This document shows positions 4,407 through 23,539 of a stretch of DNA of 64,000 bases, piece by piece. Origin of the DNA: a virus. Below the pieces are notes generated by a model. The model saw nothing but the letters and a program-made list of their open reading frames with translations, was not told the origin of the DNA and did not search any database. A program made the translations under genes and the position numbers. The stretch is taken from the IMG/VR virus record IMGVR_UViG_3300021957_000004. One strand, 5' to 3'. How positions within the stretch are numbered: position 1 is the stretch's first letter; every line of letters begins with the position of its first letter.

Positions 4407-4436
4407 GTTTACAAACACCTTGAACTGTGGTATAAT
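4407..4436 (+). promoter_or_regulatory. T4-type early promoter
   Basis: GTTTACA-N17-TATAAT with TGTGG extended -10. Confidence 0.85.
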
Positions 4437-6997: not shown

Positions 6998-7027
6998 GTT
7001 TACAAACCACTAAAACTGTGGTATAAT
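6998..7027 (+). promoter_or_regulatory. T4-type early promoter
   Basis: GTTTACA-N17-TATAAT with TGTGG. Confidence 0.85.
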
Positions 7028-17225: not shown

Positions 17226-17259
17226 TTTCGTCACAATCTCGTGAACTTTGCAAAAAAAG

Positions 17260-17289
17260 GTTTACATCCATGCTGTTTTACGGTATAAT
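17260..17289 (+). promoter_or_regulatory. T4-type early promoter
   Basis: GTTTACA-N17-TATAAT preceded by an A tract. Confidence 0.85.
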
Positions 17290-17318
17290 ACACCTATATT
17301 CAACAAAAAGGAGTTAAT

Positions 17319-17414
17319 ATGAAAACATTAAAAAAGCACGGATTACTAGATTCTGATTTTCTAGGGCCAATGATTACTTTGGCAGTATTTCTAATTATAG
17401 GAGAGATAGTATAA
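17319..17414 (+). CDS. Small membrane peptide (31 aa)
   Basis: MKTLKKHGLLDSDFLGPMITLAVFLIIGEIV; strong AAGGAG RBS; TAATG coupling to the next gene. Confidence 0.65.
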   Translation: MKTLKKHGLLDSDFLGPMITLAVFLIIGEIV

Positions 17415-17854
17415 TGAAAATAATATTTGACGTAGACGGAACACTTTTGGATATCGAACACAGAAGACATTTCGTAGAAGGTCCTAATAAAGACTGGGAT
17501 ACATTTATGGATCCAGCAGAAATGTTTAAGGACATTCCAAATCAACCAGTAGTTGATATAGCCATAGCTATGGAAAAAGCTGGACATGAAATAATCGTAG
17601 TTTCAGCAAGAAACGAAAGACATAGAACAGTTACAGAAAACAGTCTTAACAGTGCTGGTGTATTTAGATCAGCTCTTTTTCTAAGACCAGATGGTGACTT
17701 TAGAACAGATAGTGAATTTAAGCAAGAAGTTCTTGACAGTCTTATTGCTAACGATTGGAAACCTGATTTGGTCTTCGATGACAGAAATCAAGTGGTTAAC
17801 ATGTGGAGACAAAACGGTCTTACATGTGTACAAGTTGCAGAAGGTGACTTCTAA
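17414..17854 (+). CDS. HAD phosphatase (like the PseT 3'-phosphatase domain)
   Basis: IFDVDGT, VSAR, RPDGDFRTDSEFK, FDDRNQVVNMWR...QVAEGDF. Confidence 0.88.
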   Translation: MKIIFDVDGTLLDIEHRRHFVEGPNKDWDTFMDPAEMFKDIPNQPVVDIAIAMEKAGHEIIVVSARNERHRTVTENSLNSAGVFRSALFLRPDGDFRTDSEFKQEVLDSLIANDWKPDLVFDDRNQVVNMWRQNGLTCVQVAEGDF

Positions 17855-17964
17855 GATGGGACGAGTGGGTGTAATGCGTAAGGCTTTAAATAGCGAACCG
17901 TTTCCCAGAATCCTTTCTTGTGACGTAACTGTGACAATTCGTGACGAAATAGTCACAAAAAAAG

Positions 17965-17994
17965 GTTTACAAACTACCAAAACTACGGTATAAT
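17965..17994 (+). promoter_or_regulatory. T4-type early promoter
   Basis: GTTTACA-N17-TATAAT preceded by an A tract and GTGAC repeats. Confidence 0.85.
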
Positions 17995-18025
17995 ACATAC
18001 ATCATTTAAAAATTAAGGAGTTAAA

Positions 18026-18526
18026 ATGAAATTAGTAATTAACACACAATATAGAGAAAACTACGCGGCTCATGACGAAGATTATGTTCACGGTGTTTCT
18101 GAAGCATATTGGAAATTCAAAGGCGGTACTACTTACGTGGTTCCTAATTTTACGGATTCCGTAAACATCACAGAGGTTATGAAAAACCTTACTACTCTTA
18201 TCGAGTACGGTAATGCTGGTTCAGAGGAATATATCCTCGGTTACGAAATCTTTGAAGATAACGCAAAGGTCTGTGAAAACTGGGAAACTGTTACTCAGGT
18301 ATTTTATAATACGGATAATGTTACTGCTCTTAAGGTTACAGATAACCGCGAAGATGGTTGGATGAGATCAGAGATCTTGGAAAAGACCGAAGCTTGGACT
18401 ATGCTTCCTGAATCAAAAAGAGGAAAATATGCAGCATCTTACCTAATGCGTGATGGTGACATTTGTGAAAGCCAAAAAGATCTTGAAAACTGGTTCGATA
18501 CATGCGGCCAAGTGGAGGTAGTATAA
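18026..18526 (+). CDS. Hypothetical early protein
   Basis: 166 aa; TAAGGAG RBS; TQYRENY...YWKFKGG motif. Confidence 0.8.
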   Translation: MKLVINTQYRENYAAHDEDYVHGVSEAYWKFKGGTTYVVPNFTDSVNITEVMKNLTTLIEYGNAGSEEYILGYEIFEDNAKVCENWETVTQVFYNTDNVTALKVTDNREDGWMRSEILEKTEAWTMLPESKRGKYAASYLMRDGDICESQKDLENWFDTCGQVEVV

Positions 18527-18947: not shown

Positions 18948-19213
18948 TGCATCAGTCCAAATATAGGGTATCAGTTAACAAAGTTAATAATGGTGTTCAA
19001 CACATATATTCATTTCCAAATGGTTATGGAGCTAGTGTAATTAAACATGATGGTAGCTATGGTGGTAACCTAGGACTATGGGAATTAGCTGTATTAGATG
19101 ATGAAGGATCTTTATGTTATTCTACACCTATTACATCTGATGTTATAGGACATCTTTCCGATGAGGAAGTTATTTTGAAATTAAATGAAATTAGGGGTTT
19201 ACAAACATCGTAA
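18947..19213 (+). CDS. Conserved phage hypothetical protein
   Basis: FPNGYGASVI...SYGG...LWELAVL...TPITSDVIGHL motif. Confidence 0.75.
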   Translation: MHQSKYRVSVNKVNNGVQHIYSFPNGYGASVIKHDGSYGGNLGLWELAVLDDEGSLCYSTPITSDVIGHLSDEEVILKLNEIRGLQTS

Positions 19214-19226
19214 ACTATGGTATAAT
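19197..19226 (+). promoter_or_regulatory. T4-type early promoter
   Basis: GTTTACA-N17-TATAAT. Confidence 0.85.
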
Positions 19227-19260
19227 ACACCCTACAAACAAATATTAATAAGGAGTTAAT

Positions 19261-19578
19261 ATGAATAGATTAGAATTAATCAAACAAGCGGCACTAAAAG
19301 CCAAAGCAAAAAAAGAAAAAACCACAGTCGAAGAACTAAAATTCCAAGAAACAGTTCGTAACCTCGACAAGCGTAAAGCTAAAATCAAAGAAGAAATGAA
19401 ACTACATAAGAAGCTTACTGCTTCGGTAAAGAAAGCTGGCAAACAAACCGCTAGCTCTTTAGAATGTTTTGCTCCAGAAAATATGTATTATTCAGAAAAA
19501 GATACTAATCGTTTTTTAGAAAACTCATCTTACATGGATGCATATAATGCTAATAGATCAGCAGATGGAGATTACTAA
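19261..19578 (+). CDS. Hypothetical Lys-rich early protein
   Basis: 105 aa; TAAGGAG RBS; first gene after a promoter. Confidence 0.75.
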   Translation: MNRLELIKQAALKAKAKKEKTTVEELKFQETVRNLDKRKAKIKEEMKLHKKLTASVKKAGKQTASSLECFAPENMYYSEKDTNRFLENSSYMDAYNANRSADGDY

Positions 19579-20026: not shown

Positions 20027-20056
20027 GTTTACATCTCTTAGAAATTGTGGTATAAT
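20027..20056 (+). promoter_or_regulatory. T4-type early promoter
   Basis: GTTTACA-N17-TATAAT with TGTGG. Confidence 0.85.
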
Positions 20057-20063
20057 ATATATT

Positions 20064-20420
20064 ATGAGTACAACAAACTTTTACATGGGTTCATTAAGAT
20101 ATGGACCATCTGGGAAAAAAAGAAAGAAGCATGCGGCTAACCCAGTTAAAAAAACAAGGCCAAAGTTCATACCTATGGAAATAGATCCTGTTAAACAGGC
20201 AGCAGCATTAAAAGCTGCAGATATCAAAGAGCAAGAAAGAGTAGATTTTCTACAAAGACTTTCCAAGACTCAAAATGATAACATGGGTAAAAAAGAAAAT
20301 CTCCAATATACCGGAGAAAGAAAATTAGTAGGTATTGCAACAATGCATAAGTCAAATGCAGTACCAATCTTCGAAGACGATAAGGAACACGCTATAGATA
20401 TAGCACGTATGCGAAGATGA
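20064..20420 (+). CDS. Conserved hypothetical protein
   Basis: YTGERKLVGIATMHKSNAVPIF...DIARMRR motif familiar from T4-like phages. Confidence 0.75.
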   Translation: MSTTNFYMGSLRYGPSGKKRKKHAANPVKKTRPKFIPMEIDPVKQAAALKAADIKEQERVDFLQRLSKTQNDNMGKKENLQYTGERKLVGIATMHKSNAVPIFEDDKEHAIDIARMRR

Positions 20421-20428
20421 ACAATTTC

Positions 20429-20479
20429 GGGGTATGTCGCTCTTTAACTCCTTATCTTTCAGAATGCGACCTCTGCCCC
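20429..20479 (+). ncRNA. Candidate structured RNA with an anti-Shine-Dalgarno loop
   Basis: Stems GGGGTA/TGCCCC, GTCGC/GCGAC and TCT/AGA enclose loop TTAACTCCTTATCTTTC, complementary to AAGGAGTTAA RBSs. Confidence 0.55.
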
Positions 20480-20498
20480 ACTTTATTATAAGGAAATT

Positions 20499-21680
20499 AT
20501 GGCACTTAAAAAATTAAATAAGAAAAGAATCTCGATGAGGAAAGATAGAGTTTCTTTAGATGCAAAGATGATGGGTCCAGAACCTCTCTTCACAGAAGAA
20601 GATGGACACATGGACATTGAAGAACAATACGATGGAAAGATTGGCCGAAAATGGGCTAAAGCTTCCAGATGGTATAATTACTTTTATCAAAACAAAGATT
20701 ACCTTCCACACGCAGTAGACTTTCTAAGAGATGTATATGGTTGGGATGATGATAAGTTAAAAGTCTTTTTACGTTTACCCGATTATACAATTAGAAGAGT
20801 CGGTGGGGTTGGCGTTATATGGTCAAGAGGTTACAAATATGATCCATTGTTTATCGAAGGCTTTAAACCTATTACTGATGAACTATATGAAAAAGCTACT
20901 TTATTAGAAGAGCAAAGAGTAGAAGCAGTAAAAGAAAAACCTAAAATGCCTAGTATACAAGAAAGAACTAGAGCAAAGGTATTAGAAACCATTTATATGG
21001 AATTTGATGTTAACGTAGTTGATGAATGGATGGAAGGTAATTATAAAGTTGACTTCGAAGCATTCTCTCTATTTAAAAACTTTGGATTAAAAGGTAATGC
21101 TATTTCTATATTCCAAGACATGATCGATGTAGAATATCTAGGACTAAAAGAAGCATACGATAAAACATGTCCTGATTGTGTAGAAGCTTATTCACACATT
21201 ACGAAAGGCAATAAAAAGAAAATGCTCAACGTATACGACAATATTTATTCTGACCTTGATAAACTTAAAGATAGCTTTAAAGCGACGCGTAAGGCGCGTG
21301 TACGTGTCCCTAGGAGCAACGAACAACAGGTATCTAAGTTAAACTATATGAAAGAAGACTTAGCAGCTAAGTTAACATCTATTAATCCTATCCTTATTCC
21401 AACCGCATCTAAGCTATATGTTTATAATGTTAAACAAGGTAAGCTTGCAGAATACACTGCATTAGATGCTAAGGGTTTCGAGATCGCTGGATCTACTATT
21501 AAGAACTATGATACTAAACTAAGTAAAATAACTAAGTTAAGAAAGCCAGAGGAAATACTACCGCTTATTCTAAACAAAACAGAAAAGCAAATACTAAAAG
21601 TATGGAAAGGATTAACAACAAAGATTTATGAACCAACAGGCCGAATCAACAAGGACTGTATTTTAATGAGAGTAATATAA
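20499..21680 (+). CDS. Conserved hypothetical protein upstream of gp33
   Basis: 393 aa; C-terminal KLRKPEE...GRINKDCILMRV; position before gp33. Confidence 0.75.
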   Translation: MALKKLNKKRISMRKDRVSLDAKMMGPEPLFTEEDGHMDIEEQYDGKIGRKWAKASRWYNYFYQNKDYLPHAVDFLRDVYGWDDDKLKVFLRLPDYTIRRVGGVGVIWSRGYKYDPLFIEGFKPITDELYEKATLLEEQRVEAVKEKPKMPSIQERTRAKVLETIYMEFDVNVVDEWMEGNYKVDFEAFSLFKNFGLKGNAISIFQDMIDVEYLGLKEAYDKTCPDCVEAYSHITKGNKKKMLNVYDNIYSDLDKLKDSFKATRKARVRVPRSNEQQVSKLNYMKEDLAAKLTSINPILIPTASKLYVYNVKQGKLAEYTALDAKGFEIAGSTIKNYDTKLSKITKLRKPEEILPLILNKTEKQILKVWKGLTTKIYEPTGRINKDCILMRVI

Positions 21681-21919
21681 TGGATATATTAAATGAAAAG
21701 ATTATGACTAAGAAAAGATTTAGTACAGCAGTAGAAGAGCTAGTTGCTAAAAACAAAATGTCATATATGGATGCTATGAACTACGTGATAGAAAAAAGAG
21801 GTATGGATTATGGAAACATAAAGAAACTACTATCTGATTCTTTAAAAGAAAAAGTTACAGCAGAAGCCCAGGGGTTAAACCTAATCAGAGATAAGAAAGG
21901 TAATACATTACCAGTATGA
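21680..21919 (+). CDS. gp33: Late transcription coactivator gp33
   Basis: FSTAVEELV...SYMDA...LKEKVTAEAQGLNLI...LPV; gene order 33-59-32. Confidence 0.88.
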   Translation: MDILNEKIMTKKRFSTAVEELVAKNKMSYMDAMNYVIEKRGMDYGNIKKLLSDSLKEKVTAEAQGLNLIRDKKGNTLPV

Positions 21920-22506
21920 TGCAACCTTTTGATGCATATAGTATGTACAATGCACTTAAGCTGCATTTCGAACAAGACAGCTATGATGCAGTTAAATACA
22001 ATTTTAAATCTAACGTAAGTCCTAAATCGTTCTTTGCTAGGAAAGATAAATACTTCTTTGCCAAACTAGCTAAGACTTATGACGATAAACTCTTACAGTA
22101 TTATATAGCTAACTTTAAGAATGGGATTAGTTACGTTGGGGATATGCTAAACGAAGGTGGTGAAACTAACTTTAAGCAGCATATGAAAGTTCGCGAGTCA
22201 ATACATCGTGAGTTTCAAAAAGATATAAATAGTTTAATAGATATGGATATACAGTTTGATGATTTGTTTATGACAAAGCAAACGCATCCATTGATAGTAA
22301 AATTATTGATGAGAGAAGAGATTAGTTTAGAGACTGTTGTTATTCTGGATTCAATATTAGGGTTTATGAAACGTGAAGGATCTAAGATAACTGAGACAAT
22401 TATTTGGCCAGATATCTCTAGAAAGATTATGAAGTATAAACCTTTTGTAGACTTTAATAAAGATAAATGCGTAAGTATTATCAAAAAAGGGTTTACAAAA
22501 CCATAG
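21916..22506 (+). CDS. gp59: Helicase loader gp59
   Basis: YNALKLHF...YDAVKYN...RKDKYFFAKL, ISLETVVILD, KYKPF. Confidence 0.9.
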   Translation: MMQPFDAYSMYNALKLHFEQDSYDAVKYNFKSNVSPKSFFARKDKYFFAKLAKTYDDKLLQYYIANFKNGISYVGDMLNEGGETNFKQHMKVRESIHREFQKDINSLIDMDIQFDDLFMTKQTHPLIVKLLMREEISLETVVILDSILGFMKREGSKITETIIWPDISRKIMKYKPFVDFNKDKCVSIIKKGFTKP

Positions 22507-22583: not shown

Positions 22584-23492
22584 ATGTCATTCGAAAACTT
22601 AAAGAGCGCACGAGGCTCATCAATCGATAAACTCGTAAAAGCTGCAGAAGCAGTATCCACCCCAAAAGCGGACAACTCATCTTATGGTGATGATCGTCTT
22701 TGGAAACCTACAAGAGATAAAGCAGGAAACGGTTACGCGGTAATCAGATTCTTACCTGCCAAAGAAGGTGAAGATCTTCCTTGGGTAAGATACTGGGATC
22801 ACGGATTTAAAGGTCCTAATGGTCTATGGTACATAGAGAAATCATTAACCTCTATTAATCAACCAGACCCTGTCTCAGAACAAAATACTGTTCTTTGGAA
22901 TACTGGTAGAGATGAGGATAAAGCTATTGCACGTGAAAGGAAAAGACGTTTACATTATGTTTCAAACATTCTAGTAATCAGTGATCCTGAACACCCAGAA
23001 AATAATGGAAAGGTATTCCTTTACCAATTCGGTAAAAGAATCTTCGACAAAGTTATGGAAGCTATGCAACCACAATTCGCCGATGAGCAACCTTGTAATC
23101 CATACGACTTCTGGGAAGGCGCTGACTTTAAAATTAAAATCAGAAAAGTAGATGGATGGGTTAACTATGATAAATCAGAGTTCTCAAGTCCTTCAGCATT
23201 ATTTGATAGTAATGAAGCAGAGCTAGAAAGTGTATATGGGAAACTACATTCATTAAGTGAATTCACTGATCCTAAATCATATAAATCATATGACGAACTT
23301 AAAGCCAAACTTAATAAAGTATTAGGTGTTGATGCTGGAATTACTGCCGATATGGCAACTATGACTAGCGCTCCTGTTCCAACAATGGAACAAACACCTT
23401 CAATGATAGAAGAATCTCCAGCAATGGAAACCTCTTCTAGCGATGAAGATGATACGTTAAGTTACTTTAATAAATTAGCTAACGAGAGTTAA
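22584..23492 (+). CDS. gp32: Single-stranded DNA-binding protein gp32
   Basis: DDRLWKP..DKAGNGYAVIRFLP, WYIEKS, NYDKSEF, acidic tail DDTLSYFNKLA. Confidence 0.96.
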   Translation: MSFENLKSARGSSIDKLVKAAEAVSTPKADNSSYGDDRLWKPTRDKAGNGYAVIRFLPAKEGEDLPWVRYWDHGFKGPNGLWYIEKSLTSINQPDPVSEQNTVLWNTGRDEDKAIARERKRRLHYVSNILVISDPEHPENNGKVFLYQFGKRIFDKVMEAMQPQFADEQPCNPYDFWEGADFKIKIRKVDGWVNYDKSEFSSPSALFDSNEAELESVYGKLHSLSEFTDPKSYKSYDELKAKLNKVLGVDAGITADMATMTSAPVPTMEQTPSMIEESPAMETSSSDEDDTLSYFNKLANES

Positions 23493-23512
23493 CTAATAGA
23501 TCTTACGATCGG

Positions 23513-23539
23513 AAGGGGTGCGAAAGCGCCCCTTTTTTT
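23513..23539 (+). terminator. Rho-independent terminator
   Basis: AAGGGGTGC-GAAA-GCGCCCCTT stem-loop followed by a T run, between convergent genes. Confidence 0.9.

Follow-up and report, generated by a model that had tools for sequence, protein, structure and literature searches.

An uncultured marine T4-like myovirus carries a hairpin between a 118-aa ORF (20064-20420) and a 393-aa ORF (20499-21680), and the loop of this hairpin is complementary to the ribosome binding sites (RBSs) of early genes. The window, which is the whole stretch of 64 kb that was analysed, also encodes gp33 (21680-21919), gp59 (21916-22506) and gp32 (22584-23492). The questions raised by this locus are whether the hairpin is a genuine RNA structure, with what its loop may pair, and what such pairing would do to the early genes. 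The original prediction had been a trans-acting antisense RNA which shuts off an early regulon, a cis switch in which early mRNAs release the RBS of the operon leading to gp33, gp59 and gp32, or both.

The hairpin and its conservation

The hairpin is located at positions 20430-20479 of the plus strand. Folding yields an outer stem P1, in which GGGGU (20430-20434) pairs with GCCCC (20475-20479), an asymmetric internal loop (AU / CUCU), an inner stem P2 formed by GUCGC (20436-20440) and GCGAC (20466-20470), and a hairpin loop of 25 nt (20441-20465). The stem is GC-rich, with eight G-C pairs and one G.U pair among its 10 bp. The core of the loop, AACUCCUUAUC at 20446-20456 of the plus strand, is preceded by U-U, a YUNR-like context, and the full stretch that pairs with early RBSs extends from 20443 to 20455. 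The loop presumably also shares UAACUC with the operator loop of T4 gene 43. Behind the stem, at 20480-20501 of the plus strand, follow the tail ACUUUAUUAU, which has the appearance of an eroded U-tract, the Shine-Dalgarno (SD)-like word ATAAGGA at 20488-20494, which is lineage-specific, and the start of the 393-aa ORF. Covariance model R1 assigns 86.5 bits to the hairpin and, even when its filters are turned off, finds no second copy in the window. The z-score of the fold calculated from the window only is weak (-1.0 to -1.4, not significant). A scan of the 64 kb with Rfam 15 detected no family at its gathering threshold, and the best matches by E-value in 20350-20560 reached 9.8-16.6 bits as compared to family thresholds of 37-105.

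Conservation was followed in relatives from IMG/VR, where a scan reported about 576 of them. Their loci were anchored on the 393-aa protein, found by the loop pattern, or anchored on two other genes of the cluster. Combined, these loci gave about 25 distinct versions of the hairpin, with one copy per relative contig of 40-50 kb. Stems are replaced wholesale, as in GUCGC/GCGAC, GUCAC/GUGAC and GUCCG/CGGAC, and entirely different helices occur in the relatives L044, L058, L059, L073, L082, L087, L103 and L139. In alignment A4, which is fitted to the covariance model, 96.7% of the stem cells are paired versus 45-56% in slid controls, compensatory changes are found in eight of the ten pairs, and none of 500 shuffles reaches the observed value. 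The aligned stems contain 22 G.U versus 2 A.C cells, which places the helix in the plus-strand RNA. The loop core AACUCCUUAUC is invariant in the set anchored on the protein, where selection of the loci was independent of the loop, and loop lengths range from 13 to 27 nt. Conservation of the hairpin with compensation in its stem, which had been proposed as a check, is thereby borne out, and on these comparative grounds the hairpin is a real, conserved plus-strand RNA structure. The YUNR or U-turn motif, reportedly defined by Franch et al. in 1999, recurs in the relatives: U-U or C-U stands directly before AACUCC in 19 of 30 aligned rows, and CUAA is located one base upstream in 6 more. A different architecture is seen in L081 (5180-5260), where the stem GGGGCA/UGCCCC encloses two hairpins in a three-way structure (-35 kcal/mol) with the anti-RBS word in its single-stranded junction.

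The hairpin is absent from more distant phages with TTGACA/TATACT promoters and weak SDs. The nearest cultured relatives of the virus are pelagiphage HTVC008M and the Melnitz methylophages, with about 54-56% identity in gp32, and megablast found no cultured close relative. HTVC008M, which also has curli and cyclase genes, contains neither the hairpin nor TTTACA-type promoters in the regions examined. A 256-nt intergenic stretch in that phage, at 145181-145437 (L231:6682-6938), reaches -76.9 kcal/mol over 260 nt in folding calculations and is possibly a structured RNA, unrelated to the hairpin.

Complementarity of the loop to early ribosome binding sites

The word AAGGAGTTAA occurs four times in the 64 kb, three times on the plus strand (17308, 18015 and 19250) and once inverted in the loop (20444-20453). 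All three plus-strand copies are the RBS of the first ORF behind an early promoter, at 17261, 17966 and 19198. These promoters are of the form TTTACA-N17-TATAAT and score 11/12 each, in agreement with the claim that every target is the first gene behind its own early promoter. The first target (17261-17321, plus strand) consists of a class-1 promoter (17261-17289), an unstructured leader, the RBS AAGGAGTTAA at 17308-17317 and the start of ORF 17319, and the RBS is the reverse complement of 20444-20453 in 10 of 10 positions. The second (17966-18028, plus strand) has its class-1 promoter at 17966-17994, followed by a leader, the RBS TAAGGAGTTAAA at 18014-18025 and the start of ORF 18026 (166 aa), orthologues of which show the longest loop match in most lineages; here the complement of 20443-20454 is exact over 12 of 12 nt. 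In the third (19198-19263, plus strand) the class-1 promoter at 19198-19226 and a leader precede the RBS ATAAGGAGTTAA at 19248-19259 and the start of ORF 19261, which heads the operon running into the hairpin, and the RBS matches the reverse complement of 20444-20455, again 12/12. The complementarities reported originally, including a shorter one of 7/7 between 20449-20455 and the RBS of the adjacent gene at 20488-20494, were thus all reproduced. The three complementary leaders share the strand of the hairpin and lie 1.2-3.2 kb upstream of it; no strong terminator is predicted in the intervening sequence. Class-1 leaders are unstructured (-1.2 to -5.5 kcal/mol).

The predicted duplexes of the loop with these RBSs have energies of -12.8 to -15.3 kcal/mol versus -8.2 to -8.8 kcal/mol for a generic anti-SD on the same RBSs, which is a predicted gain of about 5-6 kcal/mol. 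Much of the complementarity consists of the generic SD/anti-SD core. A duplex-energy scan of the 64 kb did not single out the three RBSs: several chance partners are as stable as these, the RBSs do not rank highest, and loops of shuffled sequence reach duplexes of the same stability, so that the scan was not counted as evidence. By itself the window is not beyond chance, and it is the comparison with relatives, as a body of sequence evidence, which carries the case.

Two further candidates were rejected. A gene or RBS on the minus strand does not account for the loop, as had been stated before: the 15 nt behind the SD-like word contain no ATG, GTG or TTG, and the G.U statistics exclude a minus-strand RNA helix. 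Pairing of the loop with GAUAAGGA, 67 nt upstream in the 118-aa ORF (20379-20386), is seen in the main clade only and is absent from other clades; there the word encodes Asp-Lys-Glu and its synonymous sites vary.

In every lineage examined the loop is complementary to promoter-proximal early-gene RBSs over 9-14 nt. Where 10 nt or more are complementary, the partner is nearly always an RBS of this kind, 0.8-3.6 kb upstream on the same strand; one exceptional complement, in L034, has no start codon after it. The relation was also approached from the other side. Loci were fetched via the orthologue of ORF 18026, and the reverse complement of the 22 nt before its ATG was searched in the locus. In seven loci of this loop-blind test a match of 9-13 nt falls within a strong hairpin. 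Without exception these matches occupy the loop or the junction strand, and the hairpins are GC-rich and located 1.8-4.6 kb downstream. In other loci matches of 9-12 nt occurred without such a context.

The flanks of the core differ between lineages and do so together with the RBSs. In the main clade UUUAACUCCUUA matches UAAGGAGUUAAA; in L087 AUUCACUCCUU matches AAGGAGUGAAU, which involves two double changes; and the corresponding pairs are AACUCCUUAUUUU and AAAAUAAGGAGUU in L082, UCACUCCUU and AAGGAGUGA in L103, CACUCCUUA and UAAGGAGUG in L081, UCUAACUCCUUAU and AUAAGGAGUUAGA in L031, and UAAACUCCUUA and UAAGGAGUUUA in L033. The first flank position is mismatched in L058, L059 and L195. For 23 distinct loops the contiguous extension of the match past the AGGAG core on RBSs of the own lineage had a mean of 6.04, as compared to 4.93 +/- 0.25 for loops shuffled among lineages, and 0 of 20,000 permutations, a procedure which ignores relatedness, reached the observed value. 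The expected co-variation of the loop with early RBSs is therefore present, matched flank by flank according to lineage. Within the AACUCCUUAUC clade a preference for the own RBSs over those of other lineages is absent, so that the signal stems from a handful of events (L087/L103, L081, L031, L082 and L033). Since the early RBS cassettes are PeSL-like repeats and may be homogenised by recombination (PMC4122927), the uniformity of RBSs inside one genome is not independent evidence. Early leaders are the best-supported pairing partner of the loop in these sequence comparisons, because complementarity of 9-14 nt in all lineages is joined by co-variation of the flanks.

The same data bear on the possibility that the loop (…ACUCCUUA… in the window type, AUUCACUCCUUU in L087) is a protein operator or a mimic of the 3'-tail of 16S rRNA, to be bound by a phage or host protein with affinity for this tail or by another sequence-specific RNA-binding protein, its SD complementarity being a by-product. 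Invariance of 11 nt across deep divergence is typical of protein-binding sites, the core of the loop equals the anti-SD core CUCCUU, and the L087 loop lacks a single C in comparison with GAUCACCUCCUUU, which it otherwise resembles. The base which appears to be missing from that loop is, however, also missing from the L087 RBS, where AAGGAG-UGAAU faces AUUCA-CUCCUU, and loop flanks in general follow the RBS flanks of the phage itself rather than one rRNA sequence. Moreover, no candidate RNA-binding protein was found beside the hairpin, where the neighbours vary and the 118-aa and 393-aa proteins match no known family. This explanation is considered unlikely.

It is harder still to uphold that GATAAGGAGTTAA-like words act as double-stranded DNA operators, sites of one phage DNA-binding protein whose specificity is reflected in the co-variation. 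Such a protein would account for the same word of 10-13 bp occurring four times per cluster with all copies changing together between lineages, but would leave unexplained why one copy is inverted, always so and always single, and why it is set in the loop of a compensating stem with G.U pairs on the plus strand only.

The border between early and replication genes

In the relatives the hairpin is always found at the 3' boundary of one early cluster, comprising orthologues of ORFs 18026, 19261, 19578 and 19754. It is directly preceded by the 118-aa ORF, an orthologue of ORF 19754 or an ORF of 63-73 aa, depending on the relative, and its downstream neighbour likewise differs, being the 393-aa ORF, a small membrane ORF or, in L087/L104, an unrelated ORF of 471 aa. 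In the window the stop codon of the 118-aa ORF lies 9 nt before the stem. A U-tract directly after the stem is present in about half of the lineages, with runs of U5-U8 in L005, L014, L031, L058, L082, L139, L177 and L183 and none in the rest of the main clade. For this reason the hairpin is, on the sequence evidence, probably a terminator or derived from one. The clade of the window has lost the intact U-tract, which makes a defined 3' end doubtful there. A clade consisting of L139, L148, L194, L195, L200 and L211 has a textbook terminator, with a strong stem and U8, behind which a new early promoter and an SD serve the 393-aa gene. The hairpin of the window is not followed by a promoter, and its 393-aa ORF is without one of its own.

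The loop of 25 nt compares to about 3-8 nt in intrinsic terminators, and a scan for the terminator consensus does not call the hairpin. A canonical intrinsic terminator does occur in the window directly after gp32 (23511-23536), where an 11-bp stem, a GAAA loop and a U-run contrast with the large-loop hairpin. The size of the loop is relevant to the view that the hairpin is an ordinary terminator and its likeness to RBSs a neutral relic, such as a piece of a PeSL cassette in inverted orientation. These cassettes often recombine (PMC2839356, PMC4122927), and within one genome the match energy is not beyond chance. A neutral loop would nevertheless not be expected to stay invariant while both stems are replaced, nor to follow changes in the RBS flanks, and a loop of 20-26 nt, though it comes at a cost to a terminator, has been retained by all lineages. 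Little credence is therefore given to a relic.

More weight, though still small, is given to a control of transcription, close to the cis switch originally proposed, in which pairing of the nascent loop with a leader or with free early mRNA alters the folding of the terminator and hence the read-through into the 393-aa, gp33 and gp59 genes. A terminator-like hairpin located exactly at the border between the early cluster and the genes for replication and late regulation would suit this role, to which the same complementarity and co-variation apply. A helix of 10-13 bp inside a loop of 20-26 nt need not open a GC-rich stem of 10 bp, however. In the window clade, with its eroded U-tract and a downstream ORF without its own promoter, read-through seems constitutive, and the gene behind the hairpin of the L139 clade is served by a promoter of its own.

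Local hairpins which occlude an RBS are familiar from the T4 genes e, 49 and soc. A comparable local element could be imagined here, with the loop masking the RBS of the next gene in read-through transcripts or the hairpin aiding re-initiation at an AUG without SD, 10-20 nt downstream. The upstream stop codon, the hairpin and the next AUG are tightly spaced in the main clade, the window contains the 7/7 complement at 20488-20494, L034 has a complement of 11 nt just downstream, and L058 and L063 have AUAAGGA. Among main-clade relatives, however, the pseudoknot with the adjacent RBS that had been proposed can form in this genome only, since none of the 20 relatives with the hairpin directly before the 393-aa ORF has an SD for that ORF. 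The RBS behind the hairpin of the L139 clade is complementary to the loop over 9 nt, as compared to 11-12 nt for the upstream RBSs, the match is poor in L195, and the gene downstream is not constant, being a small transmembrane ORF in some relatives and the 471-aa ORF in L087/L104. A local role is thus rather improbable. Of the regulatory loop originally proposed, the plus-strand hairpin, the RBS complementarity and the co-variation of the flanks have held, and the pseudoknot with the adjacent RBS, and with it the cis switch, is not general.

A possible stand-alone form of the element was found in L050 (2218-2343). The 118-aa gene is missing from this locus and an early promoter is located 92 nt before the loop, without any gene in the interval, from which a short RNA is predicted. 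Going by this arrangement, L050 is the best candidate for a small-RNA version.

For the 393-aa protein no match was obtained in NCBIfam, Pfam, PDB sequences or by Foldseek against the PDB, and for the 118-aa protein none in NCBIfam and only a sub-threshold hit to Nnf1 in Pfam (E 0.076). Both fall into PHROGs families of unknown function. The structural model of the 393-aa protein (pLDDT 76, pTM 0.39) matches only uncharacterised phage proteins in BFVD; it is helical in its N-terminal part, ends in a small beta domain and corresponds to no known fold or family. The ORF is conserved as far as Caulobacter phage Cr30, Sinorhizobium phiM12 and Pseudomonas PA5oct with 26-30% identity, and in most relatives it lacks an SD. 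The small membrane ORF of about 40-60 aa (…AYMS.H…IPLPWE; L023:1985-2110, L031:3782-3967, L139:3598-3720) follows the hairpin in some clades and precedes it in that of L139.

A proposed brake on early translation and its known counterparts

Taking the comparative evidence together, the hairpin is probably an RNA brake on the translation of early genes. The form of this brake which is favoured, by a narrow balance of judgement, is a 3'-terminal anti-RBS loop that would pair with SD-led early leaders, in cis or in trans, and repress them. A terminator-type stem-loop would close the early cluster at its 3' side and display in its unusually large loop of 20-26 nt an anti-RBS word of 11-13 nt, for which the SD region (AAGGAGUUAA and variants) in the unstructured leaders made from PeSL-like early promoters would be the partner. 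As the leaders precede the hairpin on one strand and no strong terminator is predicted to separate them from it, RBS and loop are expected on the same transcript, and each class-1 transcript would carry the RBS 5'-terminally and the loop 3'-terminally or nearly so. The large loop appears wide enough for a helix of 10-13 bp. Pairing could occur within one molecule, as in icaR, and also in trans if a stable 3' fragment accumulates; we infer pairing in vivo, and its action in cis or trans, from the sequence. Since the hairpin is probably on the same transcription unit as all its targets, cis pairing between 5' and 3' ends is regarded as equally likely as the trans action. The gain of about 5-6 kcal/mol over a generic anti-SD predicts that the SD would be occluded, and the translation of SD-led early genes would consequently be limited or shut off.

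Not all early genes would be subject to such a brake. At 20028-20420 of the plus strand a class-2 early promoter (20028-20056) is followed by the 118-aa ORF (20064-20420), the ATG of which is located 7 nt past the -10 box, and a leaderless mRNA is predicted. Class-2 promoters, defined as TTTACA-N17-TATAAT with an ATG 6-7 nt after the -10 box, also occur at 782-810, 4408-4436 and 6999-7027 in the window, and their spacing is conserved in all relatives examined. The promoter of gp32 at 22492 gives a leader of 14 nt without SD. Given these distances, leaderless or SD-less messages are predicted, and transcripts from the promoter at 20028, being leaderless, would lack the word recognised by the loop. 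An SD-led and a leaderless class of early genes therefore seem, from their promoters, to run side by side in these phages. The leaderless or SD-less genes, among them the 118-aa ORF, the 393-aa ORF in relatives and gp32, would escape targeting.

Pairing of an RBS with a distant downstream sequence has been described in bacteria. In B. subtilis an RBS can be bound by aSD-like words located hundreds of nucleotides downstream, whereby translation is inhibited and decay promoted (PMC12697547), the 3'-UTR of icaR in Staphylococcus aureus pairs with its own SD (PMC3868564), and the interaction of the 5'- and 3'-UTRs of hbs in B. subtilis is a related case (PMC5737220). As in icaR, an anti-SD word near the 3' end of the transcript complements an SD at the 5' end, with a predicted block of initiation with or without decay. 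Unlike icaR, the element belongs to a phage, uses the loop of a terminator-type hairpin, and would serve three nested, probably 3'-co-terminal polycistronic transcripts of 1.2-3.2 kb; its pairing is supported here by co-variation in the sequences.

In phages the closest parallel is the c4 RNA of P1 and P7 (immI operon, Rfam C4), a processed RNA of 77 nt with two loops, which is located upstream of its target and controls icd/ant. Like c4, which is co-transcribed with its target and pairs with the RBS region via exposed loops, the hairpin is a structured phage RNA that would share a transcript with its targets and pair with their RBS regions, but it is located downstream of these targets, has one loop for three of them and gives no Rfam match. 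Among small RNAs, RsaE/RoxS and RNAIII of Firmicutes have C-rich loops that pair with SD regions. The cuckoo/CcsR RNAs of Alphaproteobacteria consist of 2-4 adjacent hairpins with CCUCCUCCC loops and variable stems (PMC4615179). These RNAs share with the phage hairpin the variable stems, the constant pyrimidine-rich loop word and, as predicted for the hairpin, the addressing of several mRNA SDs; they are chromosomal stand-alone sRNA genes with C-rich words, however, whereas the phage has a single hairpin within an operon and its word AACUCCUUAUC is U-rich and is lengthened in accordance with the RBS flanks of the phage itself.

PeSL cassettes of T4-type phages are described, in the sections drawn on here, as a stem-loop joined to an early promoter, an SD and an ATG (PMC2839356, PMC4122927). 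The stem-loops appear in those sections as terminators and recombination sites, with no mention of a loop complementary to an SD, in which they differ from the present hairpin (PMC2839356, PMC4122927). The three targets are promoter-SD-ATG cassettes of the same kind, and in the L139 clade the hairpin is itself a stem-loop directly before such a promoter.

In T4 the early genes are shut off by RegB, which cleaves GGAG in early SDs, and by the repressor RegA. There, as here, early messages would be singled out via a ribosome-binding sequence specific to their class, but in T4 this is brought about by proteins or local hairpins, and the agent proposed here is a distant RNA loop. Although it would work like icaR, c4 and the anti-SD sRNAs, the element lacks the defining features of the named families among them. 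To our knowledge, timing of early translation by an RNA loop has not been described for T4-type phages, where RegA and RegB act. A more far-reaching version of the brake seems doubtful. It would divide the early genes into SD-led (AAGGAGUUAA) and leaderless or SD-less classes and would make the terminator-loop RNA a stable 3' fragment silencing the SD-led regulon in trans, while the genes for replication and late regulation are still translated, as an RNA counterpart of the T4 shut-off by RegB and RegA and as an instance of a broader, so far undescribed tendency among phages to direct anti-SD RNAs against their own early genes.

If the pairing is real, abundant marine T4-like phages would time early translation with an RNA element built from a terminator. 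The element is small, single-copy and absent from Rfam, and the window type and the L087 type offer natural orthogonal pairs of loop and RBS, which permit a compensatory test in a heterologous host though no host is cultured. The leaderless early promoters suggest translation in two classes, which would affect gene calling and the inference of expression timing in uncultured phages.

A separate feature was observed around the early promoters. GTGAC/GTCAC repeats are found at 17226-17960, just upstream of the promoters at 17261 and 17966, and the words cgtgaac and gtgacgaaa recur before the orthologous promoters in relatives. These repeats may be a protein-binding array.
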